Below are positions 6,514 to 22,095 of a DNA stretch of 24,000 bases, one piece after another. How positions within the stretch are numbered: position 1 is the first letter of the stretch; the number at the start of each line of letters is the position of its first letter. Under the pieces are notes generated by a model. That model was not told the origin of the DNA. It was given only the letters and a program-made list of their open reading frames with translations, and did no database searches. Position numbers and translations under genes: made by a program. The stretch covers positions 9,350 to 33,349 of the forward strand of contig JBPCJO010000075.1 in assembly GCA_051005235.1 (NCBI GenBank), read 5' to 3'. This DNA comes from Candidatus Saccharimonadales bacterium (GTDB lineage Bacteria > Patescibacteriota > Saccharimonadia > Saccharimonadales > 2-12-FULL-41-12).

Positions 6514-7581
6514 CTAGCAGCCGCCTTGACTACTTAACGCCTCGATGGCGCCGGGGCCACCGTACGGACTTTGGTTGGTGTCTAAGCCGCTGCCAGGCCG
6601 GGCTTCGACTGGTGGGTGCAGGCTCAACCGCTTACAAACCTCGCCAGCGCCATCTATAACGTATGAAGGAAGTTCATAGTCATCGAAGTACGAAATACGG
6701 ACCTGAATGCGGCGTAGCACATCGCTTACCTTACCGGTTGAATCGACTTTTATTTGTGCCTGCGTAAACCGTGCGCCGTCGGTACTGGTAATTTTGACGG
6801 CGTTATCTTTAAAGAGTGAGCGAATATGTAAGTATGAGTTAGCCGGCAGATTGGTAATGGTCGCCTTACAGCGAGCCTCTGGCGAACCCGAACACGTAAC
6901 CGGAATTATCTTGCCTTGGTCGGCGGCCCCTTTGTCGTTGGTGTCGTGAGCTTTATACGCAACCGATCCGCCGCCGCTAGACGGTTTAAAAAATACTGTA
7001 AATGAGTTGTTATACAGCGCCTCGCGGCCTATCCCGCCGGTTGTAGTTAAAACGGTGGCTCGCATATAACCTGCATCGCAGCCACTGGCGCTAATAGTTT
7101 CGAGTGTCGGCGTAGCTCCGGGGCAGCTGCCAAACTGACCTTTATACAACTCGGAGGCGTTCCACTCGAGCTTGACGCCGGGCGCAAAGCCGCCAGCTGT
7201 GTTAAGTGGTATAATTTTACCGTTTTGCTTGGTGATCGACGTATATTCCAGGTCAGTCGGCTGGGCGTCGTATAAAACGCACGGTACCGACGTTGCAAGG
7301 TTATCGCCGCCCGAACTAATGTCCATCGGCGTACAGGTGGTAGCTTCTTTAGGAAAAGTAGAGTCTGCCCTAACTTTATTGACCGTCAAGTTAACACCTG
7401 ACTCGGCGGCGTAAAAGGCCTGGGTAGACAATTGCCTATCGAGTGATTGGCGATGTTCACGGCGGGTTATCTCGGAAAAGCCAATCACGATAAGAGTTAC
7501 CATAATCATGATAAAGACAGTTAGCATTACCGATACGATGCCAGATTGATTGTTAGCCAGTGGTGTTTGTTGTTTTTTCAT
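6514..7581 (-). CDS. PilX_N-domain pilus-associated protein (minor pilin/tip-complex candidate)
   Basis: 355-aa ORF, last gene of the pilin block. It has an N-terminal hydrophobic helix (GIVSVMLTVFIMIMVTLIVIGF) followed by LSTQAFYAAESGVN, which matches the PilX_N signature (QAFYAAEAG). It has several Cys residues and no G|FxxxE cleavage motif. Confidence 0.6.
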   Translation of the reverse strand: MKKQQTPLANNQSGIVSVMLTVFIMIMVTLIVIGFSEITRREHRQSLDRQLSTQAFYAAESGVNLTVNKVRADSTFPKEATTCTPMDISSGGDNLATSVPCVLYDAQPTDLEYTSITKQNGKIIPLNTAGGFAPGVKLEWNASELYKGQFGSCPGATPTLETISASGCDAGYMRATVLTTTGGIGREALYNNSFTVFFKPSSGGGSVAYKAHDTNDKGAADQGKIIPVTCSGSPEARCKATITNLPANSYLHIRSLFKDNAVKITSTDGARFTQAQIKVDSTGKVSDVLRRIQVRISYFDDYELPSYVIDGAGEVCKRLSLHPPVEARPGSGLDTNQSPYGGPGAIEALSSQGGC

Positions 7582-7620
7582 TATCGACGCTACTTATGCT
7601 TATTACTTAACATATTATAC

Positions 7621-8274
7621 TTATAATCGGTTCTTTACAAATGTGCTGATCTCGGCGGTAGCGCAAAATTGGCCGCCAAACCGTGACGATATACATACGT
7701 CACCGGGGCTAAGGTCAAAATCACCATACACAACCTTAACCTTTAATTCAGCTGGTTTGGCCGAAGGGTTTGAAGCGTCAACGTTAAATGTAACCAACCG
7801 CATATTGGCGCCTACCAGTTCGCGGCCGATCACAGCGCCTGGACCGACTTCTCGGTTAACATCGGTCTCGGGCGTGTTCATATTGGCAACAGCCGGGCAG
7901 CCAATGTTATCTTTAACACGGTCTACCCATAAGACGTGCCTACTCTGGTTGCCTGCCAGAGGTCCTTTTGGCGTTAATTGCATGTTAAGCACGTAAGAGT
8001 AGCGCACTAAGCCAACACAGACAACTCCGGCACCACTGTTAACTCTTTTATTGCCACCGGTCTGGATATTGCGCGAGATGTCTTCGATAATAGTCCGGCT
8101 GGTATCTTGAGTTTTAGAAACGATGACACCTTTGTAATAGACGCGGCCGATATACAAAACGCCAGAGGTAGCCAGTAACATCATAGAGGTAAAAATCGCG
8201 GTCGCGATTAACAGTTCGGCAATTGTAAAACCTTTTTGTGACTGGCTTATTCGCCTCATCGACGGTCGCGTCAT
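7621..8274 (-). CDS. Prepilin-type minor pilin (class III signal peptide)
   Basis: 217-aa ORF with QKG|FTIAELLIATAIFTSMMLLA (G-1, F+1, E+5). Its ATG overlaps the upstream stop as ATGA at 8271-8276. Confidence 0.78.
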   Translation of the reverse strand: MTRPSMRRISQSQKGFTIAELLIATAIFTSMMLLATSGVLYIGRVYYKGVIVSKTQDTSRTIIEDISRNIQTGGNKRVNSGAGVVCVGLVRYSYVLNMQLTPKGPLAGNQSRHVLWVDRVKDNIGCPAVANMNTPETDVNREVGPGAVIGRELVGANMRLVTFNVDASNPSAKPAELKVKVVYGDFDLSPGDVCISSRFGGQFCATAEISTFVKNRL

Positions 8275-8774
8275 CAGGCTAGCCTGCCTGCAGCCGCAAG
8301 GCCAAACTCGCTGGTTGAGGGCGGCGTTTGAGTAAACTTATTGCAAGCGATGTAATACGTGTTTAACTCCTCGGGGGTACTTTTAATGAGCGAGGTCCAG
8401 TTAACTTTAATTTTGAGCGGTTTATCTTGAGCGCAGGCTTTTGAGTTGGAAGGGTTCGGGTTCTCAATAGATACGTTGTATAAGCCATCTTCTACGCAGC
8501 CACCTGCGACCGCATCAACCTGGTCGGTCGCGGCGGCTTTAAGGCAAAAGGTTCCGGCTGGTAAAATGCCGTCAACCGTATAGCCGCGCAGCAATTCAAG
8601 CTGCGTTTCCATTACTTTGGTTGCACGGGAGCGCTCCTGTGAAGCCTGGTTGGTCGCCTGGTTATGATTAGTTAGCGTAAAGGCAGACAGCAACATAAAG
8701 CCGAGCGCCGCTAAGCAGATTAACACTTCTACGATTGTTTCTCCGCGCTGAGACGTTAAACGCATCATGCGCAA
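8274..8774 (-). CDS. Pilin-like protein with an atypical processing site (RG|ETIVEVLI)
   Basis: 166-aa ORF. It has a basic leader, Gly, E at +5 and a hydrophobic helix (VLICLAALGFMLLSAF), but Glu at +1. It overlaps both neighbours (10 nt upstream, ATGA downstream). Confidence 0.62.
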   Translation of the reverse strand: MRMMRLTSQRGETIVEVLICLAALGFMLLSAFTLTNHNQATNQASQERSRATKVMETQLELLRGYTVDGILPAGTFCLKAAATDQVDAVAGGCVEDGLYNVSIENPNPSNSKACAQDKPLKIKVNWTSLIKSTPEELNTYYIACNKFTQTPPSTSEFGLAAAGRLA

Positions 8775-9547
8775 TCTCCTGGCACAATGTCAGCCTCAGA
8801 TTTTATCTGAATGGCCGTACCTAGCTTGCCGCCAAACATAATAACTGCTTTTCGGCCGCCGCCCTTTTCTTGAACGCAAATTTTTACGCCGTCGGAAGCA
8901 TTATTGATACTGGTATTATTTAAACTGGTAGTAGCGATTTTGACAGATGCTATGCTAGAGGGTAAAGGGATGCCCGGCAAGCTAGCCAATACGGCACTGC
9001 CTGAATTATTAACCACACTGGCTTTGGTGGCAGACAGATGCTTGCCAAAACTTGGTAACACCGCGAATGCAGCGGTATCCCCAGATCCAACCGTAACTTT
9101 TGCAAATTCTAAGTCCGCGTACAGATTTTTCGATTCGGTATAGGTTGGCAGGTCAATCAGTCGCGGCGTGGCCTCGGCAATGTTTTTTACTTCTTTACCA
9201 GAGCCAGTCACTCGGTTGCCGACGATTGTGTAAATGTTGTACTTGTTTTTATCTCCGTCGGCTCCAAACTGAATGACTTTGCCGGCGAATACGCAAGCGG
9301 CACGCGTACCTTGGCCGCCAGAGCCAGTGCAACCAGCTACTGAATCTGTGCTCTCTGGGAAATAGCCGGCGTCGACATCGTTGATAACGTCTTGTATGGC
9401 CGTCTCGACGTCTTTTACGGACTTATTAAACTCCGTTTTTTGCTGCTGCCCACTAATAAGTGTCGAGACCGACACGAGTAATAGAGTGCTTATAGCGAGG
9501 TATATCATCACCTCGATTATGGTGAAGCCAGGTTGCCACCGATTCAT
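8765..9547 (-). CDS. Prepilin-type minor pilin
   Basis: 260-aa ORF with MNRWQPG|FTIIEVMIYLAISTLLLVSV, a canonical prepilin N-terminal cleavage/methylation motif. Confidence 0.78.
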   Translation of the reverse strand: MNRWQPGFTIIEVMIYLAISTLLLVSVSTLISGQQQKTEFNKSVKDVETAIQDVINDVDAGYFPESTDSVAGCTGSGGQGTRAACVFAGKVIQFGADGDKNKYNIYTIVGNRVTGSGKEVKNIAEATPRLIDLPTYTESKNLYADLEFAKVTVGSGDTAAFAVLPSFGKHLSATKASVVNNSGSAVLASLPGIPLPSSIASVKIATTSLNNTSINNASDGVKICVQEKGGGRKAVIMFGGKLGTAIQIKSEADIVPGDCA

Positions 9548-9554
9548 AGCTAAA

Positions 9555-10382
9555 TTATAGCATAAGCACCGTTAAGTACCAGCTAGTAATACTGCTGCCA
9601 AATAGCACAGTGATAATACAACCTGCTATTAAAAACGGTCCAAACGGTATATGGCTGGTACGGTTGGCCTTTTTAGTGGCCAGTAACGGTAATATAAACA
9701 GAGTACCCAGAGATGAAGCCACAAATAGCATCAGAAAAGCGTTGGCCGGATCCGCCGCCAGCGCACCAATTAAGAAGCCGAGTTTAACGTCGCCGCCGCC
9801 AATCCAACGACCGCGCGACATCTGGAACAACAGGTAAAAGATGCCGCCGCCAATAAGCACTCCTGCGCCCGCGCCGAGCAAGGTTATAAAGCTGGCAGTC
9901 TCCAGCCCGCGGGCCAAAACATACACCGCGGCCAGGCCGTAAAGCGGAAATATAAGCCGGTTTGGTAATAACATCCAGCGAATATCATAGACAACCAACG
10001 CTATCAAGCCTATCAGGCAGGCCAGCCAGGCACCAAAAGCCAGTACTTCCCAGCCAGCGATATCGCGCGGCCAGAATATATAACTGATCACAAATAAAGT
10101 GGCCATCAGTGCCTCTACCAACGGATACTGCCAACTGATGGGCTTTTTACAGTATCGACACTTTCCGCCCAAGCCCAGCCAGCTAATTACCGGCACTAGG
10201 TCCATCGGACTAAGCACATGCTTGCAGTGTACGCACATCGAACGCCCATGCGCCAACGACAGCTCCGTTTTAGAGGCAATACGATTGGCTTTTGGCTTTG
10301 ATTGCTCGCGCAAGCGCCACACCAGCGCATTCACGAAGCTTCCGAAGCACAAACCCAGCAATACGAGCGCGATAATAATCAT
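9555..10382 (-). CDS. pilD: Prepilin peptidase / N-methyltransferase (A24 family)
   Basis: 275-aa polytopic ORF. It starts LGLCFGSFVNALVWRL, then has the Cys-pair region CVHCKHVLSPMDLVPVISW..GKCRYCKKPISWQYPLVE. A GGGDVKL aspartyl motif lies later in the protein. Confidence 0.9.
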   Translation of the reverse strand: MIIIALVLLGLCFGSFVNALVWRLREQSKPKANRIASKTELSLAHGRSMCVHCKHVLSPMDLVPVISWLGLGGKCRYCKKPISWQYPLVEALMATLFVISYIFWPRDIAGWEVLAFGAWLACLIGLIALVVYDIRWMLLPNRLIFPLYGLAAVYVLARGLETASFITLLGAGAGVLIGGGIFYLLFQMSRGRWIGGGDVKLGFLIGALAADPANAFLMLFVASSLGTLFILPLLATKKANRTSHIPFGPFLIAGCIITVLFGSSITSWYLTVLML

Positions 10383-10397
10383 TATGCTTAGCTTACC

Positions 10398-10429
10398 ATA
10401 AAAAGAAAAGAACCCCTTGGAAGGGGCTC
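10398..10429 (-). terminator. Intrinsic terminator downstream of the major pilin gene
   Basis: The minus strand reads GAGCCCC-TTCCAA-GGGGTTC followed by TTTTCTTTTTAT. It lies about 35 nt after the pilA stop and 16 nt before the pilD start. Confidence 0.5.
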
Positions 10430-10462
10430 TTTTAATGCCTAAGGCTAGTTTTTAGCTTAGGA

Positions 10463-10903
10463 TTAGCTACCTACGCAACGATCAGTGTCGGCACCGGTAG
10501 TTTCGATTTTATAGGTAATCGTAAATGAGCGAGGCGCACCTGCGACAGCGACTGCACCGGCGGTATCACACTTTTTACCGGTCTCGAGGAACATACTACC
10601 GGTGGTAGCAGAGCCGGCTGTAACCAACTGCTGGTTATTCGCGATGGTGACGTACTTAGTAAGTTCGGCCTCCGTCAAGCTGTTGCACTTAGGTAGCTGG
10701 CCGTTATTATTACCAAGGCACTCATTTACCGCTGATGCTGTGCGTGCCGCGTCAGCAGTACGCTGTGTGTTACGGCTGTTACGTTGCAGTGCGGGAACGG
10801 CCAAAAAGACGATGACCATAATCAAACCGGCGATTGCCAGCACGATCAGGACTTCGATGATTGTAAAGCCTTTTTCATTTTTCTTTAATACTGATGTTTT
10901 CAT
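10463..10903 (-). CDS. pilA: Major type IV pilin
   Basis: 146-aa ORF with KG|FTIIEVLIVLAIAGLIMVIVFLAVPAL. It has two Cys pairs, including a C-terminal pair (KKC...DRC) typical of a D-region disulfide. It has its own candidate promoter and terminator, and an AGGGGG ribosome-binding site. Confidence 0.85.
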   Translation of the reverse strand: MKTSVLKKNEKGFTIIEVLIVLAIAGLIMVIVFLAVPALQRNSRNTQRTADAARTASAVNECLGNNNGQLPKCNSLTEAELTKYVTIANNQQLVTAGSATTGSMFLETGKKCDTAGAVAVAGAPRSFTITYKIETTGADTDRCVGS

Positions 10904-10951
10904 ATCTTCTGTGCCCCCTAGAAAGCGGTTTTATTAATACTTATGGTTATA

Positions 10952-10980
10952 AATATAGTTGAAGACGTTTAGAAGTGCAA
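10952..10980 (-). promoter_or_regulatory. Sigma-70-like promoter for pilA (TTGCAC-17 nt-TATATT)
   Basis: The complement of 10975-10980 is TTGCAC and the complement of 10952-10957 is TATATT, with an exact 17-nt spacer. An A-tract lies upstream. The site is about 45 nt upstream of the pilA ATG. Confidence 0.45.
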
Positions 10981-10999
10981 CTTTTTTGTGAACGACACT

Positions 11000-12220
11000 C
11001 TAGCTGATAACATTTGTGCCCGCTAATCCATAAATTGGCAGTAGTACCGCGGCCACGATAATAAAGGCGACAACACCGAGAATGACCATTAGTAATGGCT
11101 CAATAATGGTACTAATTGTTTTAATCTGATTATCAACTTCTTTTTCGTAGTAATCGGCGGTTTTTTCGAGCATATCCTCGAGGGCGCCAGACTGTTCACC
11201 GATGCGAAGCATATTGGGGACTAATGGCAAAAAGTTCGGGTCACCCTGTAGAGAGTCAGCGATTGATTTACCGCCCTTAATCTTCTCGATGGCACCATGG
11301 ATTGATTTTTCGATATGGACGTTGCTAATAGCCTTACCAACGATCTCGAGCATCTGGATCAGCGGAATGCCGCTAGCTACCAGCGTGGTACCGGTTCGAG
11401 CAAAACGAGCCATGTATAATTTCATAAACAGTGGGCCTAGCGGCCAGGCGCGCATCTTAAGACGGTCGATCAATAATTTTCCAGGACCGGTGCGGGCATA
11501 GCGGCTGGCCGCAATCGTCAAAAATACAATAATACCAATAAAGAAATACCAGTAGTCGGTCGCAAAATGCGATAATGCCAGTAACGCCCTAGTGATAAAC
11601 GGCAAGTTTGCACCTGGTAACTCTTTATAGATTGCTTCAACCTGCGGCAACACTTTGATCAGCATAAAGCCTAGTACGGCGATCATGACAATAATGACGA
11701 TAATCGGGTAAGCCAGAGCACCTTTAACTTTACTCATAATTTCGGCGTCTTTTTCTTGTTGTAAGGCAATCCGGAACAAGGCGGCGTCAAGTGTACCCGA
11801 CACCTCACCAGCGGCGATTAGGCTTATGTACACTTCGCTAAACACTTTTGGATGTTTGGCCAGGGCTACAGAAAAGGCCGAGCCGCCCTCGATATCGGCG
11901 ATAATCTGGCCAATAACCACCCGAAAGGCCTTATTGGTTGTTTGATCGTTGACGTTACGTAAGCTTTGCACTAACGGTAAGCCGGCGTTAATTAGGGTCG
12001 ACATCTGCCGCGAGAAAATAATGCGGTCTTTAACGGAAATGCGATTGGTAAACTTGGAAAATATATTTAACGACTTTGTATCGGCTAAGACAATATCGAG
12101 TGGTGCTAAGCCCTCGCTTTTAATGAGCTTGGCGGCCGAAGCTTCGCTATCGGCCTGCAATGAAGACTTAACTTTTTGGCCACTGGCCGGATCTCTGGCG
12201 ACGTAATTATAGGTTAACAT
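11000..12220 (-). CDS. pilC: Type IV pilus platform protein (GspF/PilC family)
   Basis: 406-aa ORF with two T2SSF repeats (FSRQMSTLINAGLPLVQSL and ARFARTGTTLVASGIPLIQML) and three TM segments. Confidence 0.92.
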   Translation of the reverse strand: MLTYNYVARDPASGQKVKSSLQADSEASAAKLIKSEGLAPLDIVLADTKSLNIFSKFTNRISVKDRIIFSRQMSTLINAGLPLVQSLRNVNDQTTNKAFRVVIGQIIADIEGGSAFSVALAKHPKVFSEVYISLIAAGEVSGTLDAALFRIALQQEKDAEIMSKVKGALAYPIIVIIVMIAVLGFMLIKVLPQVEAIYKELPGANLPFITRALLALSHFATDYWYFFIGIIVFLTIAASRYARTGPGKLLIDRLKMRAWPLGPLFMKLYMARFARTGTTLVASGIPLIQMLEIVGKAISNVHIEKSIHGAIEKIKGGKSIADSLQGDPNFLPLVPNMLRIGEQSGALEDMLEKTADYYEKEVDNQIKTISTIIEPLLMVILGVVAFIIVAAVLLPIYGLAGTNVIS

Positions 12221-12223
12221 GGC

Positions 12224-13294
12224 TTATCCCCTCATCAACCTGTCTAGTTCGGTAATATCGACTGCCACAATCCGGGCTTCGTCGTAGGTGATAGTACCGG
12301 AATGTATAAGGTTAACCAGTGTTTTGTCCATTGATTGCATGCCGAATTCCCCGCCGGTTTGGATGACCGCGTCAAGCTGGTGGCTCTTGCCCTCGCGGAT
12401 AATATTGCGAACGGCCGGCGTGGCAATTAGAACTTCGGCTGAAGCGACCCGCCCGCCGCCAATCGTTGGAACTAGGCGCTGCGAACAAATAGCCATGAGA
12501 ATATTACTAAGCTGAGCCCGAATTTGCGGCTGCTGGTGTGGTGGAAAGACGTCAATCATACGGTCGATACTCTGGGCAGCACTGTTGGTGTGCAGCGTGG
12601 CAAAAACCAGGTGGCCGGTTTCGGCGATGGTAATGGCGGCCGAGATTGTTTCGAGGTCGCGCATTTCGCCCAGCAGCACAACATCTGGATCTTGGCGCAA
12701 GCTGCTACGCAGGGCGGCCGAGAATGAATACGTGTCATAGTGGACTTCGCGCTGTACAATGACCGATTTCAGGCTTTTGTGGGTAAACTCGATTGGGTCT
12801 TCGATAGTTACAATATGAACCGCTTTTTCGGTGTTAATTTTGTGCACTAAGGCTGCTAGCGTGGTAGATTTACCGGAGCCTGTAGGGCCAGTCACCAATA
12901 CAAGGCCACGCGGATAGTCGGCAAACTTACGAACAACCTCTGGCAAGCCCAGCTGCTCGGTTGACATAATTTCGTTTGGTATGAGGCGAAGCGCTGCCGC
13001 TAAGTTACCGCGCTCGTGGAATGCGTTAACCCGGAAGCGGCCTAAGGCACCGAAGGCAAAGCTAAAATCAAATTCTTTATCTTTAAGTAAAATCTGTTTT
13101 TGCTCATCGTCGAGAATCGCGAAGATCAACGACTCGACCATTTCGGCGTCTAGAGTATGGGCACCACTAACCGGAATCAGCGCGCCGTCGATGCGTAGCG
13201 TTGGCTGCAAGCCAACTTGAATATGCAAGTCAGATGCCTTTTTTTTGATTACCTCTTCGAGGAGTTGTTCGATTCGTATGCTTGGTGTTGCCAT
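12224..13294 (-). CDS. pilT: Type IV pilus retraction ATPase PilT
   Basis: 356 aa. Motifs are ASDLHI, Walker A GPTGSGKST, Walker B DVVLLGEMRD, His box GHLVFATLHT, and the PilT-specific AVRNIIREGK motif. Confidence 0.93.
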   Translation of the reverse strand: MATPSIRIEQLLEEVIKKKASDLHIQVGLQPTLRIDGALIPVSGAHTLDAEMVESLIFAILDDEQKQILLKDKEFDFSFAFGALGRFRVNAFHERGNLAAALRLIPNEIMSTEQLGLPEVVRKFADYPRGLVLVTGPTGSGKSTTLAALVHKINTEKAVHIVTIEDPIEFTHKSLKSVIVQREVHYDTYSFSAALRSSLRQDPDVVLLGEMRDLETISAAITIAETGHLVFATLHTNSAAQSIDRMIDVFPPHQQPQIRAQLSNILMAICSQRLVPTIGGGRVASAEVLIATPAVRNIIREGKSHQLDAVIQTGGEFGMQSMDKTLVNLIHSGTITYDEARIVAVDITELDRLMRG

Positions 13295-13314
13295 TTTAGT
13301 TACCTAATTTATTG

Positions 13315-15102
13315 TTATGCGCTGTCGGCTGACGCTACGCGGTTAATTTCGTCTACTGTAGTTAGTCCTGCTAAGGCTTTAAAGTAACCGTCTTGTCGCA
13401 TGGTGATCATGCCTTGTGTTCGGGCTGTCCGCTCAATTTCACTGCTGGTAGCGCGGCTAATTATAAGCTTCTGAATTGCTTCATCGACTTCAAACACTTC
13501 GTAAAGGCCCATACGACCCTTGTAACCACCGGGGGTTTCGCGTCCGTCTTCACCCTTAAATAAAGTATAAGCGTTTTGCTTAGTAAGTGGCAAGGTTTTG
13601 TAGCCAATGTCTTGCGCCCGGGCGGCGACTTCTTCGGCAGTGGCGGGTAGTAGATTACCTATATTATTCAAAATACCTTCGGTTTCGACGACTGATGATG
13701 CATACTCTTGCCGTGTGGTGTCAGCGATTTTGCGCACCAGTCGTTGGCCAATAACTGTTCGAACGGTAGATGCAATCAAAAACGGCTCAATGCCCATATC
13801 TAGCAAGCGGGGCAAAATACCGGCCGCACTGTTGGTGTGCAGCGTACTAAAGACCAGGTGGCCGGTTAGCGCAGCCTGGACGGCTAGCTGGGCCGTCTCT
13901 TTATCGCGGATTTCGCCAACCATGACGACGTCCGGATCTTGTCGTAAAATAGAGCGTAAGCCGGTAGCAAATGTTAAACCTACCTCCGGATTAACCTGAA
14001 TTTGGTTAATGCCGTCCATTTTGTACTCAACCGGGTCTTCTAGGGTGACGATATTTATGGACTCGTCCTTAATTTCTTGAATCAGTGCGTACAGCGAGGT
14101 AGATTTACCAGAGCCAGTTGGTCCCGAGGTTAAGATCATGCCATTGGTTTGCTTGATGCCCTTGCGGATCGTCCGCAAAGCCCGGCCGTGATAACCCATT
14201 TCTTCGAGTAGCAAGCTGGTGCCGGATTTATCGAGCAGACGAATAACTACTTGCTCACCCCATACAACTGGTGATATGGCAATACGCAGGTCAATCGCTT
14301 TACCAGTGACAGCGACCGTAAATTGGCCGTCCTGAGGTATTCGGTGCTCATCAATTTTTAGGTTACTCAAAATTTTAATACGAGAAATGAGCGGCGGCTC
14401 GGTCGACTTTGGAAGCTTCATAATTTCTTTAAGGACGCCGTCGATGCGGCAACGGATCTTTAGTTCTTTCTCGAGAGGTTCGATGTGTATATCGCTAGCC
14501 CGGTTTTTAGCGGCGTATTCTAAAATTGTTGACAGCGCCCTACTGATCGGCGAATCTTGGACAATTGTTTTAATTTCAGACTTAACCTCGACTGGTTGGT
14601 CAGTTTTTTCGCCCGGGTTAACGCTAATGCCGATGGCGGTGGCTACGTCGGCCTCAACGTCTTCGTCATACTGTGTAAGTACATGTCTAATGCCCTCTTC
14701 ACTGGCGGTATAAACTTTGAGGGTACGGCCAATCCGGTTCGCTAAAAAGTCGACAGCTTGCACATTGTCGGCATCAAGCATAGCCACCACCAGACGACTC
14801 TGGATTTGCCCCAGCGGCACAGCCATATAGCGCTCAGCTACATCTTTTGGCAGCAGGCGCAACACATCGCGCTCAATCCGTGCCTCGAGCAGGTTTACAT
14901 ACGGAACACCGTTAATTTCGGCCAGTAGTTTGGTTAATGTCTCGTTAGAGACGTGGCCATTTTCGAGTAATGTCGAAAAGTACGGAACGGCGGACTTTTC
15001 GGCATCAGCCTTTGCCAAATCCAACGCAGCCAGGCTAATTAAGCCTTGGCTAACAAGCTTTTGTTCAATTTTTTTTTGAACCTCAGGCGATAATATTGCC
15101 AT
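13315..15102 (-). CDS. pilB: Type IV pilus assembly ATPase (GspE/PilB family)
   Basis: 595 aa. It has an N-terminal T2SSE_N domain (LLPKDVAERYMAVPL). Other motifs are Walker A GPTGSGKST, DVVMVGEIRD, GHLVFSTLHT and GYKGRMGLYEV. Confidence 0.92.
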   Translation of the reverse strand: MAILSPEVQKKIEQKLVSQGLISLAALDLAKADAEKSAVPYFSTLLENGHVSNETLTKLLAEINGVPYVNLLEARIERDVLRLLPKDVAERYMAVPLGQIQSRLVVAMLDADNVQAVDFLANRIGRTLKVYTASEEGIRHVLTQYDEDVEADVATAIGISVNPGEKTDQPVEVKSEIKTIVQDSPISRALSTILEYAAKNRASDIHIEPLEKELKIRCRIDGVLKEIMKLPKSTEPPLISRIKILSNLKIDEHRIPQDGQFTVAVTGKAIDLRIAISPVVWGEQVVIRLLDKSGTSLLLEEMGYHGRALRTIRKGIKQTNGMILTSGPTGSGKSTSLYALIQEIKDESINIVTLEDPVEYKMDGINQIQVNPEVGLTFATGLRSILRQDPDVVMVGEIRDKETAQLAVQAALTGHLVFSTLHTNSAAGILPRLLDMGIEPFLIASTVRTVIGQRLVRKIADTTRQEYASSVVETEGILNNIGNLLPATAEEVAARAQDIGYKTLPLTKQNAYTLFKGEDGRETPGGYKGRMGLYEVFEVDEAIQKLIISRATSSEIERTARTQGMITMRQDGYFKALAGLTTVDEINRVASADSA

Positions 15103-15122
15103 AACAGGTAAGCCACTCTACC

Positions 15123-15359
15123 CTAAAAGGGAGAAGTATTACTCTCATCGCCAATTCTTATGAGTTTGGTAGGGTTAATGGCATTTGGGTTAAACACTTC
15201 CTTATCGGGAATCTTGAACTCACTGCTAATAGCCTCGACTTTTTCGGCTGTCTGTTGTTTGCTACCTTTTGAGACAAAGACCGTCTTAGTCATTATTACC
15301 GAGAATACGCCGCCAATAAAAATGACAATTATTATTAAGGCAATATCTTTTTGTTTCAT
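15123..15359 (-). CDS. Small single-pass membrane protein inside the pilus operon (unknown)
   Basis: 78-aa ORF with TM helix IALIIIVIFIGGVFSVIM. Its ATG overlaps the pilO stop as ATGA (15356-15359). It ends 20 nt before pilB. Confidence 0.55.
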   Translation of the reverse strand: MKQKDIALIIIVIFIGGVFSVIMTKTVFVSKGSKQQTAEKVEAISSEFKIPDKEVFNPNAINPTKLIRIGDESNTSPF

Positions 15360-16024
15360 CGAATTTGCTCCGTTTCAACCTTGAAGATCTTACTTGGTTG
15401 ATAAAAAGTTTTGGCGTTAATTGTTAGTTCCGGCTGCTCGCCTTGCTCGACTTTGAATGTCAAACTTTTAACTTGTATCGGGCGGATTGATCGTTCTAAC
15501 AGATTAACAGCCGAGCTGCCAGAAGTACCGGATATACCAATTTTTACAGAAAAAGGTAACTCGACGGGTTGCGGAATAGATATTTGTTGAGACTGCGCGA
15601 CTTCGTCGTCGGTACCAATGATTTCTTTGATCTGAAAACCGTTGTCCTTAAAGATCTTCTCGACGCTGGTGGTTAAGGCCGGAAAGTCATACTTACTTGG
15701 TAGCGCGTCTAACACTATTCGAGCATTATCGCCATCTTTATCACCTGTCCCGGCCGGATTGCCGCCTAAAATGTTAGCTACCGGATCATCGAATTGCTCA
15801 AAAGAAGTGTTGAGCTTTTTGTAGGCTTCGGCATTGGATTTAACTTGCTTAAGTGCAATCTGTTTTTTGCCAATAACCCGTGCCTGGTAGGCCCGTTGGT
15901 CAAGCAGACTTTTGCCGGCTACCATGCAAAAAGCAATTACAAACGCCGCCGCGCCGGAGGCGACCAAAATAGTAAGTTGGGCTTTATCGATTTCGATTCG
16001 TTTGGCTGATAGTTTTCTAGCCAT
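15356..16024 (-). CDS. pilO: PilO-like pilus assembly protein
   Basis: 222-aa bitopic ORF (TM helix LTILVASGAAAFVIAFCMVAG) with a coiled-coil segment and then LDALPSKYDFPAL. It sits directly after pilN. Confidence 0.68.
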   Translation of the reverse strand: MARKLSAKRIEIDKAQLTILVASGAAAFVIAFCMVAGKSLLDQRAYQARVIGKKQIALKQVKSNAEAYKKLNTSFEQFDDPVANILGGNPAGTGDKDGDNARIVLDALPSKYDFPALTTSVEKIFKDNGFQIKEIIGTDDEVAQSQQISIPQPVELPFSVKIGISGTSGSSAVNLLERSIRPIQVKSLTFKVEQGEQPELTINAKTFYQPSKIFKVETEQIR

Positions 16025-16026
16025 GA

Positions 16027-16776
16027 TTAACGTCCCCCGCCTTGGTTAGGTTGTATGTTTTGCTGCGGAGCGAATAAGCTACCAGGAGATTCGGCAATTG
16101 AGCGGGCTGATATTATGTTTGGTATAACTAGTGTAATAGGCGGTTTATCTTCGGGCGCGCCTTTAATGTTAGAGAATATTATCGGGTCGAATGAAGCTAA
16201 TATTTCGTATTCTACCTTAGCCGCATTGGCAGCGACTCCTGACCGCTGTTCGATTACCGAGAACTTTTGTAATACGACATTACTAAACGCTTTACCCTCA
16301 GGCTTATCGGCAGTACTGCGCATGTAATCGGTTAGTTTTAGCGTATCGGCATATTTATTAACGGTACCGAAACTGTCGGAATTACCTTTAACAAGGATGG
16401 TATTCGCTTCGAGGTCCAGCTCGACGTCAGAAATAGTTGCCTGGTCCGGTGTTAGCTGGAATAAGTAGTCGAACAACCGGGAACTGATGGCTTTATTGTC
16501 GTGTAACTCCGGCAGGCTCTTTAGCTGATTTTGGACTGTTAAGATTTTATCAAGTTCGGGCGCGTCTTTTCGAAGTTGTTCGACACCTTTGATGATGTCA
16601 CGGCTCACAGCCTTACTGTGGTTTACCTGGGCAATCCGGACGAACGAAAATAGCGCCGCGAAAAGTAAAATTGAGATCGCCGAAGAAACAATTGATATGG
16701 TGACTACCAGACGCATGCGGCGACGGGCTTTTAAAAACTCAATTTTTACGTCGGGGAGTAAATTAAATTGGATCAT
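16027..16776 (-). CDS. pilN: PilN-like pilus assembly protein
   Basis: 249 aa. The N-terminus MIQFNLLPD carries the INLLP signature, followed by one TM helix. It overlaps the pilM stop as ATGA (16773-16776). Confidence 0.75.
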   Translation of the reverse strand: MIQFNLLPDVKIEFLKARRRMRLVVTISIVSSAISILLFAALFSFVRIAQVNHSKAVSRDIIKGVEQLRKDAPELDKILTVQNQLKSLPELHDNKAISSRLFDYLFQLTPDQATISDVELDLEANTILVKGNSDSFGTVNKYADTLKLTDYMRSTADKPEGKAFSNVVLQKFSVIEQRSGVAANAAKVEYEILASFDPIIFSNIKGAPEDKPPITLVIPNIISARSIAESPGSLFAPQQNIQPNQGGGR

Positions 16777-17813
16777 TCGTTGCGCTCCGCCAAGCCGGTC
16801 GCCACACCAAAGTGATTAGACAAGGCCATCAGCTCGTTTTGACGAGGTAGATCGTACTGGATATTACGCCAGGCATTGCCAATTTCGACATTAATACCAA
16901 ATTTATTGGCAATATACAATGGAAACTCCGGTAGAGACGACGCGCCGCCAGTCATAATAATGCGGTTGAGTTTAACCCCTTCGTAACGGGATTCAAAAAA
17001 CTTGATCGATTTATCGATGTCTGTCATTAACAGATTAACGGTATTCACAATCGCCTGGTAAACCTGGCCTTCTAGCTTTTGTTGACTTAAGCCGAATTTA
17101 AAAACAAATTCCTGGGCCTGCTTTTCGTCTATATTAAGGTTTTGCATGGCAGATCGGATTATCGTCTCTGAGCCTGTCGGAATGGCCCGAGTTAAGTGCG
17201 ATACACCGTTCATGGCAATAACAATGTCGGTGCTTTTGCTGCCAATATCGATAATCATGTTGGGCGACGCGTCGTCAGGGGCGATCATAGAACGCACCAA
17301 TGCAAGGTTGTCTGGCTCAAAGGCAATAACGTTTAAGCCAATCGACTCTATGAGGTCGAGTCGCGGCTCGATAAAATCGTTTGAGACACTAGAAATTAGT
17401 ATTTCTAGCTTATTTGGGCTCTTTGGCGAGTCGCCAATAACTGCCCAGTCAATTTTTGATTCGGCGATCGGCGTTGGGATCAACCCGTCAGCTTGGTACC
17501 GTATGGTTTTGGCCAACTCTTTTAATGGTATCCGTTCGATGTCGACAACGGTGGTAAAAACACGCGAAGACGGGATTCCTACCACTACGTCTTTTGTCGT
17601 TATCTGGGCGCTTGCCAGCATTTCTTTGATGCTTTGCATCAATTTTAGCTGATCTGACTTAGAATCACTGAGGGCAACTTTAGCATCGACTGGTGAAATG
17701 GCATATTTCATCAGTTGCTTTGACTTTGGACTGTTCGTTACCTGGACGGCGCGCACAGCGCTGCTACCTATATCCAGGCTAAAGAATTCCGATACCCCAC
17801 TCAGTAAACTCAT
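16773..17813 (-). CDS. pilM: PilM (actin-like ATPase fold) pilus assembly protein
   Basis: 346 aa. Motifs are SLDIGSSAVRAVQV, IIDIGSKSTDIVI and IIMTGGASSLPEFPLYI, typical of the PilM/FtsA-like fold. Confidence 0.88.
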   Translation of the reverse strand: MSLLSGVSEFFSLDIGSSAVRAVQVTNSPKSKQLMKYAISPVDAKVALSDSKSDQLKLMQSIKEMLASAQITTKDVVVGIPSSRVFTTVVDIERIPLKELAKTIRYQADGLIPTPIAESKIDWAVIGDSPKSPNKLEILISSVSNDFIEPRLDLIESIGLNVIAFEPDNLALVRSMIAPDDASPNMIIDIGSKSTDIVIAMNGVSHLTRAIPTGSETIIRSAMQNLNIDEKQAQEFVFKFGLSQQKLEGQVYQAIVNTVNLLMTDIDKSIKFFESRYEGVKLNRIIMTGGASSLPEFPLYIANKFGINVEIGNAWRNIQYDLPRQNELMALSNHFGVATGLAERNE

Positions 17814-17884
17814 TCTTGTAGTTTATATCCGTTTATTTTTATACATGATTATATCTTCTTGAACTTAGTATAGCATAAGTGTTT

Positions 17885-20800
17885 TTAAAGGATAGGTGGT
17901 AATGTGACAATATACTCGTACTTATTGCCGGTCTGGCTACCTAAGGCCCGGAAGATAGACTGATCACCGTATTGCCCTAGCAGTACCTCAGGTGTTAAGC
18001 GCAAAGCTTCGCCAGCTTTTGTCTCGTTGGTACTGCCGCCGCTAGTATCAAATGTCTCACGCGGGGTGTAAAAGCGATTACTACCGCTACCGGCGTAGGT
18101 TATGTCACGCAGGGTACCTTTAATACGATAGAACTTAAGGTGTTCGGCAACCAACAAGCCGTCAACTTTAAGTTGTTTTTGAGAGCACTTAGCCAGCAAT
18201 ATAGCCTTATCGCCCGGGTTACCAAGATCAAGCGGCCTACCGCTATCGGTACAGGTATGAATCGTGCCGCCCTGGCTAATATACAGCCCGTCCAGCTGCG
18301 CAACGGTATCCGAGATGTAAATATCCCCCTTAACTACCAACGCAAAGGCCGGAATATCGTTGATTGTACCGCCACCGGCTGGTCCGTATTTTATATCCCC
18401 ACTGATTACAACGTCGCCCTCGGCGTAAATAGCGTGCCGTCCGGTAAATGCCGGGTTGCCAGCAAGCGTACCGCCGCCGCCATAGGACTGGTTATTGTTT
18501 TTTGGAGAACTATAACTTAGCCCGCCGCCGCCGGCTTTTGTTTCGCGTTTAATCGTTTCGTCAAAGTATTTTGGCTGGCCACCGGCCCGCAAGGTTCCGG
18601 TTAGCTTTAGGCCGTCGGCCGACTGCGGTTTACTTGCGACCGCAGGATTAGCCCCAGAGAAAGCATTTCTAAAGAAAGCACTGGCAAAGTCGATCGGCGA
18701 GGTACCGCTAATGGCGGCAAACTCTACGCCAGAACCAGCCCCTTGGTCGGGGTTCGCCATAAAGCCCCTAATTGGCCCGTTTGAAATAACATCGCCACCG
18801 TACGCCCGCATAAACGGTGTATCTATAATCTGGCCGCACCGTACATCATACAAAGGATAGGTTGTCGGTTCACTAGTATTCTTAACTGGGCTAAGTACAC
18901 GTTGACCACCAGGATAAGGCAGCCCGTTTGTCCAACCTTCGTTGTAGTCTATGTCGATACGGCCACAGAACTGGTCACCCATGCTCCAGGTGTCGCCCGG
19001 GCGAAACTCATTTGGCTTGGCCGGATTATTGATCCGGTTCCAGATTCTTTGCCAGGTATTGCTGCCATTCAAACCGCCGGCCGCATCTTTACCGGTGTTA
19101 TTAATTACATCAGAATCAAGCGGTGGCCCCTTAAGCGTGACGGCATCTGATGGCGGTGGCTCATGCTTAAAGTAATTAAGCTGATTCTTACCCTTTACCA
19201 ATATTGGGATATTAAAATACTGTATGGTCGGATCCGGCGGATACGCGCCCAGCTTGGACTCTGTTTTGGTATCGTACTCTATACTCAATGGGTCTTCATT
19301 ATTTGGTTTTGGTTCTACTCTGGTTACCAAAGGTTTAATCTTAAACGGCTGGTACACGTCAATGGCAATGGTACAGGGCGCACCTATCGAGAACAGGCCG
19401 TAGTAGTCCGGATACACTGTTACGGTGTGGCGACCGGCGGTAGCGGGTGCGTTAAACGTCATAGTGCCATTAACCGAAGATCCAAGCCCAACCGTCTGCC
19501 CAACCGCAAAGTATGGTGGCGTGCTTGGGAAGGTTCCTGCCGTCGCGCCGGCTGTGGTCAGCGTGAGTGGTGCCCCCGACACATTAGAGTAGAGTGGGTT
19601 TCGGTCCCCCGGACCAGTGTTAGTTAGAGTATAGTTAACGTTAAATTGCTTAGTCGCAACTACCCCTTCGCTTGGTGAGGAGCCCGGAATAGTACCAGCC
19701 GGACTGGCCGTAAACGAGTTAAGGCTGCAAGCACCGTTATAGCACGGCCCAACGTCTCGGTTAACACCGTATGTAAAAGAACCGTCAGAGTAAGGGGGCC
19801 ACCGACCCGACTCACCTATATCTTTAACTCTCAAGCCAGCCCGCCAACCATTATTTGGAGCGCTTTCTGCTGGAAAGTCACCCAAGGTTATAGTGCCAGA
19901 ACCTCTGCCCGAATAGGTAGTTGCTTTGCCCGGATCTTTGTCTTGGTATAGGATTAGTTCGTAATAAAGCCCTTGGCCTTGGTCATCATTGTCCGAGATA
20001 GTAAACGTCACCTGAGAACACGTTAGCGAATTAATAGAAAAGCTCGGTGGACTGTTGATACAATCAAGCGATTGGGTATAACTGGACTCGCTAGTTTGGT
20101 TACTATACGTCCCCGTCTTCGCGTCATAATTTTGGTAGGTTTTAATAAAGAACGTCCGGGTGCCTTTACCAGGTGGGTACTGGCCAAAATAGCTCCCCCC
20201 ATTTATACCAAATATGTAACTGCCGCTCGAGGGAGTACCTCCACTCTGACCAATCCTGTTAGCGTCGGATATACTATCAATAAACACGCTCCAGTAACGG
20301 CCAGGTGTTACATTACCCCAGATTGCATCACAGTTTATATTTATGTTGGCGTTACCGGTTACAGTCGGGGGAGGTGGTGTGTAGTTCTTTTGATACTTAA
20401 TAATAATCCAGTAATCTTGGTTGTTCGCTAAGCCAGGTTTAATATTTGGATAACCAGGATTGAGATATATATCGTTTTCACTGGCATCATACTTATGCTT
20501 TTGATAGAACACACCTATTCTCTTATAGCCAGCCGGTTCATCAGCTATCGAAAATTCTACAGGAGTGTTCCAGCAACTATCATGAAATGTTCTGTCGGTA
20601 TTATTTTCTCCGCTACGACTCCAACTCCCTGCGGTAATATTGCCGCCACTATCGCTCAGCATATAGAAAGATCCTGCCGCGCCGCAAGTAGTAGCAGGAG
20701 TATATACGTCGCCTACGTGAGGCGGGTCATCTCTTGTGTATGACTTATTCGGGTCTCTGTAAGCTTTGACTTTAGCACCGGATATACTTGCGCCATTATC

Positions 20801-21994
20801 GCTGTTGATCGCTTGGAGAGTTACGGTGTAAGAGTGGTCAAGACATGTTTGGTCAGATACAGCTGCTTGCGCTTTTTTAAGGCCGGGAGAAGTTGCATAT
20901 CTAATTACTGTATCAGCAAACTTTGAAGCATTTTTTGAAACGCTCTGTTTATCAATTTTAAGTCTATTATTAGTATAGTCATTTTTGTATTTTGTCAGGA
21001 AGGCATCCCAAGAATCATAAGTTCCATTATTAATGCTATCGACTCGAACAATCATAAATGCTCCAGTTTTTGACACAAAAATACCAGTGTTATCGCCAAC
21101 ATTTTTTAGTTCATTAATCTTATCGGTAGTAGTAAACGGTTCGCCTATATTACCCCTAATCCATCTAGTTTCATCGATGTCATTATATCTAGTAACGCCT
21201 TTCTGATAATCTTTTTGGACATTTACTGCAAGCGTAGCTTGCCCTATATATAAGCCCAAGTCTCGAGCTATCTCTGCATCGGTTGATTTTTCACCAAATA
21301 ATTCTTCGTACCAAATTGTGTCGGCAATCTTTGCTATATCTTCTTTTGAGGCACCTGCGGCGACTAACGGAAGTACTTCTTTCTCAAGTCTTGTCTTTGC
21401 CTTGTCGTACTCAGCTTGCACTTGATCCTGTGGCAAGTTTCTAAAGTACGGCGAGTCTAGAACAATATTTACCTCTAAAAGATTCATTTTTCTTACAAGT
21501 TTGTCTGTTAGTTTTGCCTGCAATGCTCGATTCTCTGCGTAAACAAGATTTATTTTATTATTAGGCGCTCTTAAGTCACTAAAATAAGCTTTTCTTTCGT
21601 CTTCAGTTTCAAATTTTCTATCAGCTGCGAGAGCAATGTCATCGTCAGTAATTGATATACCGTTATTTTGGGCTTCCAGCTTTAATGCGGCGTTCATAAT
21701 TAATGAGTCGATTGCAAATTGCCTATTGTCTTCGCTAAATGAGCTGTCAGGATTTGCGGCAATAAAATCATTTAATAATTTTTCATAGGTGTCTATGTCA
21801 GACTTTGTAATTTTGTTGTCACCAATTTTTATATCAGCCGTATTAGTTTTTATATATGCAAAAATACCACCACAGATGATTAAAGAAATAAAGATAAAGG
21901 CAACTATAGTTGACTTGGATTTTCGTTTGCTTATCCGGGTTCGCAACAAAGATATCTTATTGCTATGTATTTTCGTACTTATTTTTTTTATCAT
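17885..21994 (-). CDS. Giant membrane-anchored surface protein: N-terminal SurA_N/degenerate-parvulin-like module plus about 1000 aa of Ig-like (CARDB/carboxypeptidase-regulatory-like) and beta-rich domains
   Basis: A single uninterrupted 1369-aa ORF with an ATG start. It has a basic N-terminus and a TM anchor (IVAFIFISLIICGGIFAYI). AIDSLIMNAALKLEAQNNGISITDDDI resembles SurA_N. GIFVSKTGAFMIVRV resembles the end of a parvulin domain. YTVTLQAINSDNGASISGAKVKAY and FNVNYTLTNTGPG...GTMTFNAPATAGRHTVTV look like Ig-type folds. It lies 71 bp upstream of pilM on the same strand. Confidence 0.85.
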   Translation of the reverse strand: MIKKISTKIHSNKISLLRTRISKRKSKSTIVAFIFISLIICGGIFAYIKTNTADIKIGDNKITKSDIDTYEKLLNDFIAANPDSSFSEDNRQFAIDSLIMNAALKLEAQNNGISITDDDIALAADRKFETEDERKAYFSDLRAPNNKINLVYAENRALQAKLTDKLVRKMNLLEVNIVLDSPYFRNLPQDQVQAEYDKAKTRLEKEVLPLVAAGASKEDIAKIADTIWYEELFGEKSTDAEIARDLGLYIGQATLAVNVQKDYQKGVTRYNDIDETRWIRGNIGEPFTTTDKINELKNVGDNTGIFVSKTGAFMIVRVDSINNGTYDSWDAFLTKYKNDYTNNRLKIDKQSVSKNASKFADTVIRYATSPGLKKAQAAVSDQTCLDHSYTVTLQAINSDNGASISGAKVKAYRDPNKSYTRDDPPHVGDVYTPATTCGAAGSFYMLSDSGGNITAGSWSRSGENNTDRTFHDSCWNTPVEFSIADEPAGYKRIGVFYQKHKYDASENDIYLNPGYPNIKPGLANNQDYWIIIKYQKNYTPPPPTVTGNANININCDAIWGNVTPGRYWSVFIDSISDANRIGQSGGTPSSGSYIFGINGGSYFGQYPPGKGTRTFFIKTYQNYDAKTGTYSNQTSESSYTQSLDCINSPPSFSINSLTCSQVTFTISDNDDQGQGLYYELILYQDKDPGKATTYSGRGSGTITLGDFPAESAPNNGWRAGLRVKDIGESGRWPPYSDGSFTYGVNRDVGPCYNGACSLNSFTASPAGTIPGSSPSEGVVATKQFNVNYTLTNTGPGDRNPLYSNVSGAPLTLTTAGATAGTFPSTPPYFAVGQTVGLGSSVNGTMTFNAPATAGRHTVTVYPDYYGLFSIGAPCTIAIDVYQPFKIKPLVTRVEPKPNNEDPLSIEYDTKTESKLGAYPPDPTIQYFNIPILVKGKNQLNYFKHEPPPSDAVTLKGPPLDSDVINNTGKDAAGGLNGSNTWQRIWNRINNPAKPNEFRPGDTWSMGDQFCGRIDIDYNEGWTNGLPYPGGQRVLSPVKNTSEPTTYPLYDVRCGQIIDTPFMRAYGGDVISNGPIRGFMANPDQGAGSGVEFAAISGTSPIDFASAFFRNAFSGANPAVASKPQSADGLKLTGTLRAGGQPKYFDETIKRETKAGGGGLSYSSPKNNNQSYGGGGTLAGNPAFTGRHAIYAEGDVVISGDIKYGPAGGGTINDIPAFALVVKGDIYISDTVAQLDGLYISQGGTIHTCTDSGRPLDLGNPGDKAILLAKCSQKQLKVDGLLVAEHLKFYRIKGTLRDITYAGSGSNRFYTPRETFDTSGGSTNETKAGEALRLTPEVLLGQYGDQSIFRALGSQTGNKYEYIVTLPPIL

Positions 21995-22024
21995 TTCAAT
22001 GATAGACCATTTTAAAAATTATGA

Positions 22025-22057
22025 AACTTATGTTTATTGTACAGAACTTATGTTTAT
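22025..22057. repeat. 13-bp direct repeat AACTTATGTTTAT x2 with a 20-bp period
   Basis: Exact copies at 22025-22037 and 22045-22057. They lie in the about 20% G+C divergent region between the giant gene (ATG at 21994) and the 22174 ORF. Confidence 0.85.
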
Positions 22058-22095
22058 AATCCAATTAAAAATAGTTTGACATATTAATCATATGA

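Follow-up and report, generated by a model that had tools for sequence, protein, structure and literature searches.

A candidate accessory surface protein at the head of a type IV pilus operon in an uncultivated Saccharimonadales bacterium

We analysed a stretch of 24,000 nucleotides (nt) from an uncultivated Saccharimonadales bacterium (GenBank assembly GCA_051005235.1, contig JBPCJO010000075.1, positions 9,350 to 33,349), referred to below as the window. In it, a gene for a protein of 1369 amino acids (aa) stands first in a type IV pilus (T4P) operon, directly upstream of pilM. Our analysis suggests that this protein is a lineage-variable, adhesin-like accessory surface protein, linked to the pilus operon and equipped with a built-in holdase. 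We put the probability of this reading at roughly 0.45. From sequence comparison, the invariants of the family are a C-terminal module (C-module) and the slot directly upstream of pilM, with an N-terminal payload that is swappable, being a chaperone-like module, a plain signal peptide with an unknown domain, or a vWA domain.

Position upstream of pilM and the conserved C-terminal module

The open reading frame (ORF) ends with a stop codon at 17885-17887, and the next ORF, whose product matched Pfam PilM_2 (E=7.6e-37), starts at 17813 on the same strand, leaving a gap of 71 nt exactly as claimed in an earlier note made from the letters of the window alone. That note had seen no terminator before pilM, and this was borne out, since a consensus scan of the minus strand of 17814-17884 found no terminator-like site and the gap RNA was no more stably folded than shuffled controls (z = -0.07). 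NCBI also has an identical protein, titled 'MAG: SurA N-terminal domain-containing protein [Candidatus Saccharimonadales bacterium]' (MAG, metagenome-assembled genome). In an exhaustive HMMER search, a full-length profile retrieved 6,536 representatives of clusters at 50% identity at E<=1e-3, 5,694 at E<=1e-10 and 3,365 at E<=1e-30. Because of the identical deposited protein and these representatives, we take the ORF for a real gene and not a chance one. The peptides GAFMIVRV (aa 311-318), AIYAEGDVVISGDIKYG, ALVVKGDIYISD and LYISQGGTIHTC were all found in its translation.

A word-index search gave only 7 relatives, in which the N-terminal module (N-module, aa ~25-410) and the C-module (aa ~1040-1369) were common but the middle was not. 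Local hidden Markov models (HMMs) sorted the top 151 of the 6,536 representatives into 101 with both modules, 44 with the C-module only and 6 with the N-module only, these last being mostly fragments. The earlier note had taken the fusion of a foldase with an ectodomain as the essence of the protein. The 44 C-only relatives, and the unfused ectodomain of the closest relative (locus L019, see below), show that the fusion is optional. Named homologues came nearly all from Saccharibacteria/Saccharimonadales, the exceptions being P0006, with the label Nomurabacteria, and L011, given as 'bacterium' only; here and below, L numbers stand for related loci and P numbers for family proteins. No functional annotation was present in the family beyond the N-terminal SurA_N match, and we found no description of the 1369-aa gene in the papers that we could search and read on pili of Saccharibacteria or of the Candidate Phyla Radiation (CPR).

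The C-module spans the last ~330 aa, which were conserved and confidently modelled, and can be divided into parts C1 and C2 and a flexible tail (Table 1). Its local HMM matched the window protein over aa 1056-1351 (E=2.2e-71). Cys1248, Cys1270, R1290 and E1329 are conserved residues of C2. Among 145 C-module proteins, the module was always C-terminal and the sequence ended in LPPVL (37 proteins), LPPRL (23), LPPRF (22), LPPIL (12) or close variants, that is, in a family-wide motif LPPx[L/F/Y]. The window protein thus belongs to the family by its HMM match, its LPPIL tail and its position 71 nt before pilM. We considered LPPIL as a sortase (LPXTG-type) signal and rejected it, as it forms the last five residues, with neither a transmembrane (TM) stretch nor a basic tail after it.

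Searches of Pfam, NCBIfam and PDB sequences with the C-module gave no match; over the PDB sequence searches with the N-module, the ectodomain and the C-module profile together, the best hit was a DUF4097 chain (E=0.42, not significant). NCBIfam returned sub-threshold matches only, to a filamentous-haemagglutinin beta-helical repeat (E=0.047, P0148) and to CglB (E=0.017, P0216), to which we gave no weight. C1+C2 therefore looks like a new conserved extracellular domain pair, unmatched in these three collections, and this agrees with the earlier impression of an architecture unlike that of described T4P components. In C2, a strand pattern phi-x-phi-x-x-G-D-phi-x-phi ran across AIYAEGDVVISGDIKY, AFALVVKGDIYIS and GLYISQGGTIHTC, and in the structural model these short strands are compatible with a few solenoid rungs. 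The Gly-rich beta-helix that had been proposed for the C-terminus is suggested by this pattern of the model only; no fold match was obtained for it, and in fold searches with the ectodomain, immunoglobulin (Ig)-array matches swamped the C-module.

We then looked at the surroundings of the gene in 19 informative loci, a sample and not a census. In 18 of them pilM lay directly downstream on the same strand (the window, L001, L004, L005, L006, L009-L012, L014-L021 and L023), the one exception being P0006 (L002 and L003). Since PilM identity to the window was only 37% to 64% across these loci, they represent diverse lineages. L007, L008 and L013 were too short to be counted, and in L022 the gene is followed by an unverified, partial ORF with which the locus ends. 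Scanning genomes with the 16-sequence alignment A6, by one peptide pattern, gave 8 loci and was not a census either. Homologues scattered over unrelated loci, which by the earlier note would have refuted its reading, were thus not the pattern in this sample.

What stands before pilM differed between relatives. Two C-only proteins, P0090 and P0152, each combine a signal peptide with an unrelated N-domain, and their genes fill the same slot, with ychF and a small TM-TPR gene on one side and pilM on the other. In L017 and L018, a TM-TPR gene precedes the C-module gene; these TPR genes matched Pfam TPR_21 at 1.3e-8 (L017) and 0.038 (L018), gave generic TPR matches only in a PDB search and, by the L017 match, provide a lead towards a relationship with YfgM. 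L021 (2256-9194) and L023 (429-8767) have one or two cassettes immediately upstream of pilM, each comprising a TM-TPR gene (~180 aa), a ~750-aa secreted protein ending in C1 (...NDLHN) and a signal peptide-vWA-C2 protein ending in LPPRF. As the C-module is here split between two adjacent genes, C1 and C2 are separable, and C2 can carry a vWA domain of the adhesion type. Up to four module-bearing genes were arrayed before pilM in relatives.

In the closest relative, L019, the pil genes are ~75% identical at the nt level and the flanking genes are the same. Its ectodomain, P0109, comes from a gene of its own, starts with a cleavable signal peptide and is 53% identical over aa 524-1369. At 4939-9153 of this locus, a 347-aa TM-anchored ORF ends with a TAA stop and is followed by P0109 in the same reading frame; with the window N-module HMM, the 347-aa ORF appeared unrelated, and a likeness to SurA could not be demonstrated. 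Three further loci showed variants of their own: in L009 (817-3960), a 1047-codon frame (stop to stop) for another C-module protein, which immediately precedes the gene with both modules; in L014 (2854-3624), an additional small N-module ORF ahead of the main gene; and in L016 (1087-4637), a gene apparently frameshifted into two ORFs.

Among cultivated models, the locus of Southlakia epibionticum was the one inspected. Its pilM (SEML1_0104) begins 12 nt past ychF, with no gene between, and most genes of the T4P locus SEML1_0104-0116 were class I essential in transposon sequencing (PMC10633639). That locus is otherwise syntenic with the window, down to the XerC, PH-domain and PpiC-domain proteins, and the only SurA_N protein of S. 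epibionticum is the PpiC-domain protein SEML1_0121. Because an essential and syntenic T4P locus has no gene at this place, the 1369-aa gene is a non-core part of the machine. A role as conduit or essential scaffold, which the earlier note had entertained, is disfavoured by this arrangement.

The N-terminal module, the junction and the stalk

The protein starts with MIKKISTK...STIVAFIFISLIICGG. A single hydrophobic segment (aa 29-47) follows a K/R-rich tail, as in the single anchor of PpiD, which would put the N-terminus inside and the chaperone outside. The sole Pfam match in the whole protein was to SurA_N_3, at aa 27-121 (E=1.2e-6, 28.8 bits for a cut-off of 27.2), and the same match was found in 13 of 16 family members. 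For aa 1-414, an AlphaFold2 (AF2) model from an alignment of 71 homologues reached a predicted local distance difference test score (pLDDT) of 84.6 and a predicted template modelling score (pTM) of 0.79. It showed the TM helix, helices at 64-166, a beta-alpha-alpha-alpha-beta-alpha-beta-beta succession at 170-321 and closing helices, and the order at 170-321 is that of parvulins. Compared with the PDB by Foldseek, the model had SurA/PrsA/PpiD/PEB4/Cbf2/LIC12922 chaperones at all of ranks 1-12, and nothing else had a comparable probability. The matches included PpiD-YfgM (8zht), SurA (8q0g, 8pz1), PrsA (7l75, 5tvl), YacD (9a7d), PEB4/Cj1289 (3rfw), HP0175 (6bhf, 5ez1), LIC12922 (3nrk) and PPIase 8hm4/8hm3 (PPIase, peptidyl-prolyl isomerase). 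TM-scores were low (0.13-0.20), as expected because the domain arrangement differs. A search of PDB sequences with the N-module gave nothing significant. The Pfam match above cut-off, the model and the Foldseek ranking together support the SurA_N-like character first read from the sequence.

The parvulin part was seen in the AF2 order of secondary structures and in the Foldseek alignment lengths, and profiles did not pick it up. There was no Rotamase profile match in aa 120-400 even at E<=10 in Pfam, nor a Pfam Rotamase match in the 16 family members scanned, and hhalign of aa 160-330 against approximate PpiC/Pin1 sequences gave a probability of 0.4, which is not significant. Since alignment to parvulins was not significant, the catalytic positions were set by topology. 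Position 313, the G-x-H site, was F in 28, Y in 21, L in 7, H in 6 and I in 6 of the 71 homologues, and beta1 (LLEVNIVL) had no conserved His across them. With neither catalytic position holding a conserved His and no Rotamase match, the suspicion that this part is non-catalytic appears probable. The N-module is therefore a PpiD/PrsA-like chaperone fold, very probably without isomerase activity.

The N-module had been likened to the PrsA/PpiC-like ORF at 1-804 of the window. This likeness did not hold, as neither BLASTP nor the N-module HMM found any similarity between the two, and the N-module is therefore not a recent duplicate of that ORF. With the PpiD/PrsA/SurA family at large, the window protein shares the N-terminal anchor and SurA_N-type helices clamping a parvulin-topology domain. 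The parvulin domains of PpiD and SurA P1 are catalytically inactive, as that of the window protein seems to be. In contrast to this family, however, the module makes up only the first ~370 of 1369 aa (~27%), has no Rotamase HMM match, lies in a pilus operon and is unlike the window's own PrsA-like protein. The protein is thus a member of the SurA_N superfamily only.

Between the N-module and the ectodomain lies a short motif (Table 1) in which, among 71 fused homologues, A377 was kept in 69, C384 in all 71 and H387 in 69. It resembles a signal-peptidase-type AxA site, but without the preceding hydrophobic core: the hydropathy of the 15-mer before it (KD15, Kyte-Doolittle) had a median of 0.84 and reached 1.6 or more in only 2 of 71. 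Cleavage by signal peptidase I is not expected for this reason. The motif is possibly a relic signal-peptide cleavage site or a processing site. Cys384, together with Cys437 and Cys474 further on, was invariant in alignment A6.

An AF2 model of aa 380-1369, built on 56 sequences, was all-beta with a pLDDT of 73.3 and placed sandwich domains at aa ~389-536, 549-642, 651-726 and 737-863. Fold searches with the ectodomain in PDB and BFVD returned hundreds of matches to tandem FN3/Ig/MG arrays, among them TEP1/complement MG domains and fibronectin FN3. The stacked Ig-type domains of the earlier note are confirmed by these results. There was no Pfam match on aa 120-1369 and nothing significant in a PDB sequence search with the ectodomain; relatives gave weak CARDB/DUF11/DUF7507 matches in the Ig-like region. 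The central ~475 aa therefore resemble adhesin stalks of the CARDB/DUF11/FN3 type in being tandem beta-sandwiches that match FN3/MG/Ig arrays, but differ from them in having no Pfam domain at threshold and in being poorly conserved within the family. Along the gene, GC content shifts from 36-43% in the N-module region (20001-22000) to 50-53% in the ectodomain (18001-20000). This gradient fits the amino-acid composition, K/N/D/E-rich helices versus G/P/S/T-rich beta domains, and possibly also a fusion of parts with separate histories.

Possible roles of the protein

If the protein is a pilus-linked accessory surface protein, it would be exported by Sec and the PpiD-like module would then sit at the outer face of the membrane, held by the N-terminal helix. 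The isomerase-dead module would be a built-in holdase for the protein's own ~1000-aa beta-rich ectodomain. We propose a holdase acting in cis because the partner is fused here, while in relatives a separate, small membrane-anchored gene stands before the ectodomain gene; in these unfused relatives, the TM-TPR gene, or the 347-aa ORF of L019, may serve as holdase. A partner in a separate gene supports this role less strongly than if the very same module were found split off. The Ig-like stalk would project C1+C2 through the wall, and C1+C2 with the flexible tail would bind a conserved partner of the pilus system, either the pilus/minor-pilin complex or the machine on its external side. Contact with the host bacterium would fall to the variable parts. 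By analogy, and without homology, such a protein would be comparable to non-pilin pilus-associated adhesins, which have a conserved docking end and a variable binding end.

Several points weigh against this reading. The presumed link of the C-module to pilins or PilMNO comes from synteny only, and with its anchor uncleaved the protein could not ride on an extending pilus without prior processing. The holdase in cis is based on fusion-versus-split logic, with the 347-aa ORF of L019 not demonstrably SurA-like, and the TPR partner genes offer a generic TPR signal and the TPR_21 match only. An internal promoter may lie within the 71-nt gap. Last, P0006 (L002, L003) is the only family member that we found apart from pil genes; at L002 it occupies 10001-13798, flanked by a NUDIX/ArgRS block and an ABC transporter, and the MAG carries the label Candidatus Nomurabacteria.

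A bolder version of the proposal, which we hold to be possible though rather doubtful, is that C1+C2 and the LPPx[L/F/Y] tail form a hitherto unrecognised docking domain that plugs interchangeable payloads (Ig stalks, vWA or unknown domains) onto the pilus or an envelope-spanning base. The cassette array upstream of pilM would then be a programmable host-recognition locus, and the PpiD-like and TM-TPR partners would be dedicated export chaperones. If so, these cassettes would contribute to the range of bacteria open to attachment by an episymbiont. A conserved docking-like end, hypervariable Ig/vWA payloads, a variable copy number and chaperone-like partners form the pattern expected of a host-range determinant, and a family of at least 6,500 clusters (50% identity) tied to the pilus operon in many environmental lineages would offer concrete candidates for the adhesion and host-specificity factors of uncultivated Patescibacteria. 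Saccharibacteria cannot live as episymbionts without their type IV pili (PMC10633639, PMC9894109, PMC11623550). The absence of the gene from the S. epibionticum slot may partly explain the silence of the papers that we read on the family. The protein would also provide a new context for PPIase-dead parvulin chaperones, besides the new conserved extracellular domain C1+C2.

Other roles can be read from the same observations. One would be an envelope collar or conduit, with C1+C2 forming a ring round the pilus at the wall or S-layer in place of a secretin and the Ig stalk serving as a membrane-anchored strut. Pfam scans found no secretin among the window proteins, and CPR bacteria generally have none (PMC6744442). 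The gene adjoins pilMNO, where diderms have pilP and pilQ, both ends of the protein are conserved around a variable middle, and the flexible conserved tail could mediate subunit contacts. We nevertheless consider a collar improbable: the essential T4P-1 locus of S. epibionticum does without it, a copy number of 0 to 4 before pilM and the splitting into C1 and vWA-C2 would be unusual for a stoichiometric ring, and vWA and Ig-chain payloads are typical of adhesins. The window protein itself gave no Pfam, NCBIfam or PDB sequence match to a secretin (PilQ/GspD) C-domain or to N0/N1. Little more likely is a dedicated pilin chaperone, in which the SurA/PpiD-like module would receive prepilins or minor pilins exported by Sec and hold or fold them, the remainder of the protein being an appendage. 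Such a role would suit the chaperone fold and the shared operon with pilins, and client binding persists in parvulin chaperones that lack PPIase activity, such as PpiD and SurA P1. Yet the N-module is absent from the 44 C-only relatives, which keep the C-module and the position before pilM, and from the closest relative, L019. Furthermore, model Saccharibacteria make functional T4P without an N-module protein, and the ~1000-aa ectodomain with its conserved end would be left unexplained.

The ectodomain might instead become a tip adhesin after processing, the protein being cut after A377 so that the chaperone stays behind and the ectodomain docks through C1+C2 and the LPPxL tail on a minor-pilin tip, as PilY1 would. 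The nearly invariant [A/V]-x-A ... C-x-x-H junction speaks for it, as do the unfused ectodomains starting with a cleavable signal peptide that ends in AxA (P0109, ...ASA|SC) and the vWA-C2 proteins, which are secreted and not anchored. PilY1 follows the same logic of a conserved C-end and a variable N-end, and that of Pseudomonas aeruginosa carries a vWA-like domain. Like PilY1/PilC, the window protein is a large Sec-exported protein from a pilus gene cluster with a conserved C-terminal domain and a variable N-terminal/central part, and vWA domains occur among C1+C2 family members. In contrast, we saw neither a beta-propeller pattern in the AF2 model nor a PilY1/PilC match, or any PilY1 propeller homology, in Pfam scans. 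The gene lies upstream of pilM and not among the minor pilins, the protein is membrane-anchored with only a putative pilus association, and the AxA lacks its hydrophobic core. We regard this role as unlikely. It is equally unlikely, in our view, that the protein is a general surface adhesin, with C1+C2 as a wall or S-layer anchor and the site upstream of pilM as a permissive, well-expressed insertion hot spot. This would account for the strongly variable content and copy number of the locus, for the placement of P0006 elsewhere and for the empty locus of S. epibionticum. However, 18 of the 19 loci keep the gene before pilM on the same strand despite the divergence of PilM, and such conserved adjacency is hard to explain without selection for co-expression.

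A comparison with modular type IV pilins bearing grafted adhesive modules is also worth making. Streptococcus sanguinis PilB is a modular pilin with a vWA domain. As in such pilins, a vWA or Ig-like module is here joined to a conserved pilus-system module, in a T4P of the monoderm type. PilX2 of Nanosynbacter lyticus TM7x has been proposed as the adhesin of T4P-2 (PMC11623550), and differs in having a beta-propeller. The window protein is not a pilin, because it has no class III signal peptide and no N_methyl motif; no N_methyl match was found in it, versus N_methyl or PilX_N matches in five downstream genes.

The pilus operon and its surroundings

The operon is of the pilT-containing T4P-1 type and its genes, together with the parts of the 1369-aa protein, are given in Table 1. 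The intergenic region upstream of it is likely the operon promoter region.

Table 1. Features of the 1369-aa gene and of the pilus operon it heads (window positions)
Feature	Position	Strand	Description
Whole ORF	17885..21994	-	ATG start, 1369 aa + stop; first gene of the type IV pilus operon
Single TM helix (aa ~29-47)	21854..21910	-	predicted PpiD-like N-in anchor; before it, a Lys/Arg-rich tail in the cytoplasm (aa 1-28)
SurA_N-like helical domain, aa ~50-166	21497..21847	-	Pfam SurA_N_3, AF2 helices 64-166, Foldseek matches
Parvulin-topology domain, aa ~168-322	21029..21493	-	beta1 LLEVNIVL, beta4 GAFMIVRV; catalytic His positions not conserved
Closing helices	20891..21010	-	aa 329-340 confident, aa 355-368 low confidence (AF2)
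Junction motif, aa 375-387	20834..20872	-	[A/V]375-x-A377 ... C384-x-x-H387
Variable stalk	19406..20830	-	about four all-beta Ig/FN3/CARDB-like sandwiches (AF2 model + Foldseek)
Long beta-hairpin, aa ~874-915	19250..19375	-	AF2
Pro/Gly/Asn-rich linker, aa ~923-997	19004..19228	-	low confidence, pLDDT 31-43
C1, aa ~1039-1145	18560..18880	-	C-module part 1; motif PFMRAYGGDV...; pLDDT 83-91 (aa 1050-1109)
C2, aa ~1146-1350	17945..18559	-	C-module part 2; candidate short-strand rungs; pLDDT 85-96 (aa 1170-1299)
Flexible C-terminal tail, aa 1351-1369	17888..17944	-	pLDDT <50; terminal LPPIL at 17888-17902
Gap to pilM	17814..17884	-	71 nt; terminator-like hairpin not found
Upstream intergenic region	21995..22095	-	AT-rich, ~100 nt; weak sigma-70-like sites (e.g. 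22036-22009)
Rest of operon	6514..17813	-	pilM to PilX_N protein, all downstream of the 1369-aa gene
pilM	16773-17813	-	
pilN-like ORF	16027-16776	-	
pilO-like ORF	15356-16024	-	222 aa, pilO position
78-aa ORF	15123-15359	-	single TM; between pilO-position gene and pilB
pilB	13315-15102	-	
pilT	12224-13294	-	
pilC	11000-12220	-	
pilin	10463-10903	-	
pilD	9555-10382	-	
Three N_methyl minor pilins	8765-9547, 8274-8774, 7621-8274	-	
PilX_N protein	6514-7581	-	

Across the intergenic region upstream of the operon, a divergent ORF of 238 aa with a TTG start (22096-22812, plus strand) shares the AT-rich spacer with the 1369-aa gene and matched no family. Another ORF, of 723 aa (2466-4637, plus strand), has a signal peptide, a Pro/Ala-rich region, many repeats of the N-T-x-A-G-D-A-T-S-G-N-A-Q type and a C-terminal TM helix, and gave no match to a Pfam or NCBIfam family; its product is probably a further surface protein. 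A tRNA-Ser(GCT) predicted on the opposite strand (2625-2714, minus strand) overlaps the 5' part of this ORF, so that either the ORF start or the overlap is doubtful.

Except for the 1369-aa gene, the whole region of the operon and these flanking genes is syntenic with S. epibionticum: a PrsA/PpiC-like ORF, a PH-domain protein and a XerC-like recombinase appear in the same order in both. By gene order, the PrsA/PpiC-like ORF 1-804 (minus strand), cut by the window edge, corresponds to SEML1_0121, the PH-domain protein at 824-1363 (minus strand) to SEML1_0120, and the XerC-like recombinase at 5578-6501 (plus strand) to SEML1_0117. Within the operon, an ORF of 73-83 aa stood at the place of the 78-aa ORF in every related locus inspected, and its counterpart in S. 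epibionticum, SEML1_0107, was scored essential. The 78-aa ORF is an unnamed conserved T4P component.

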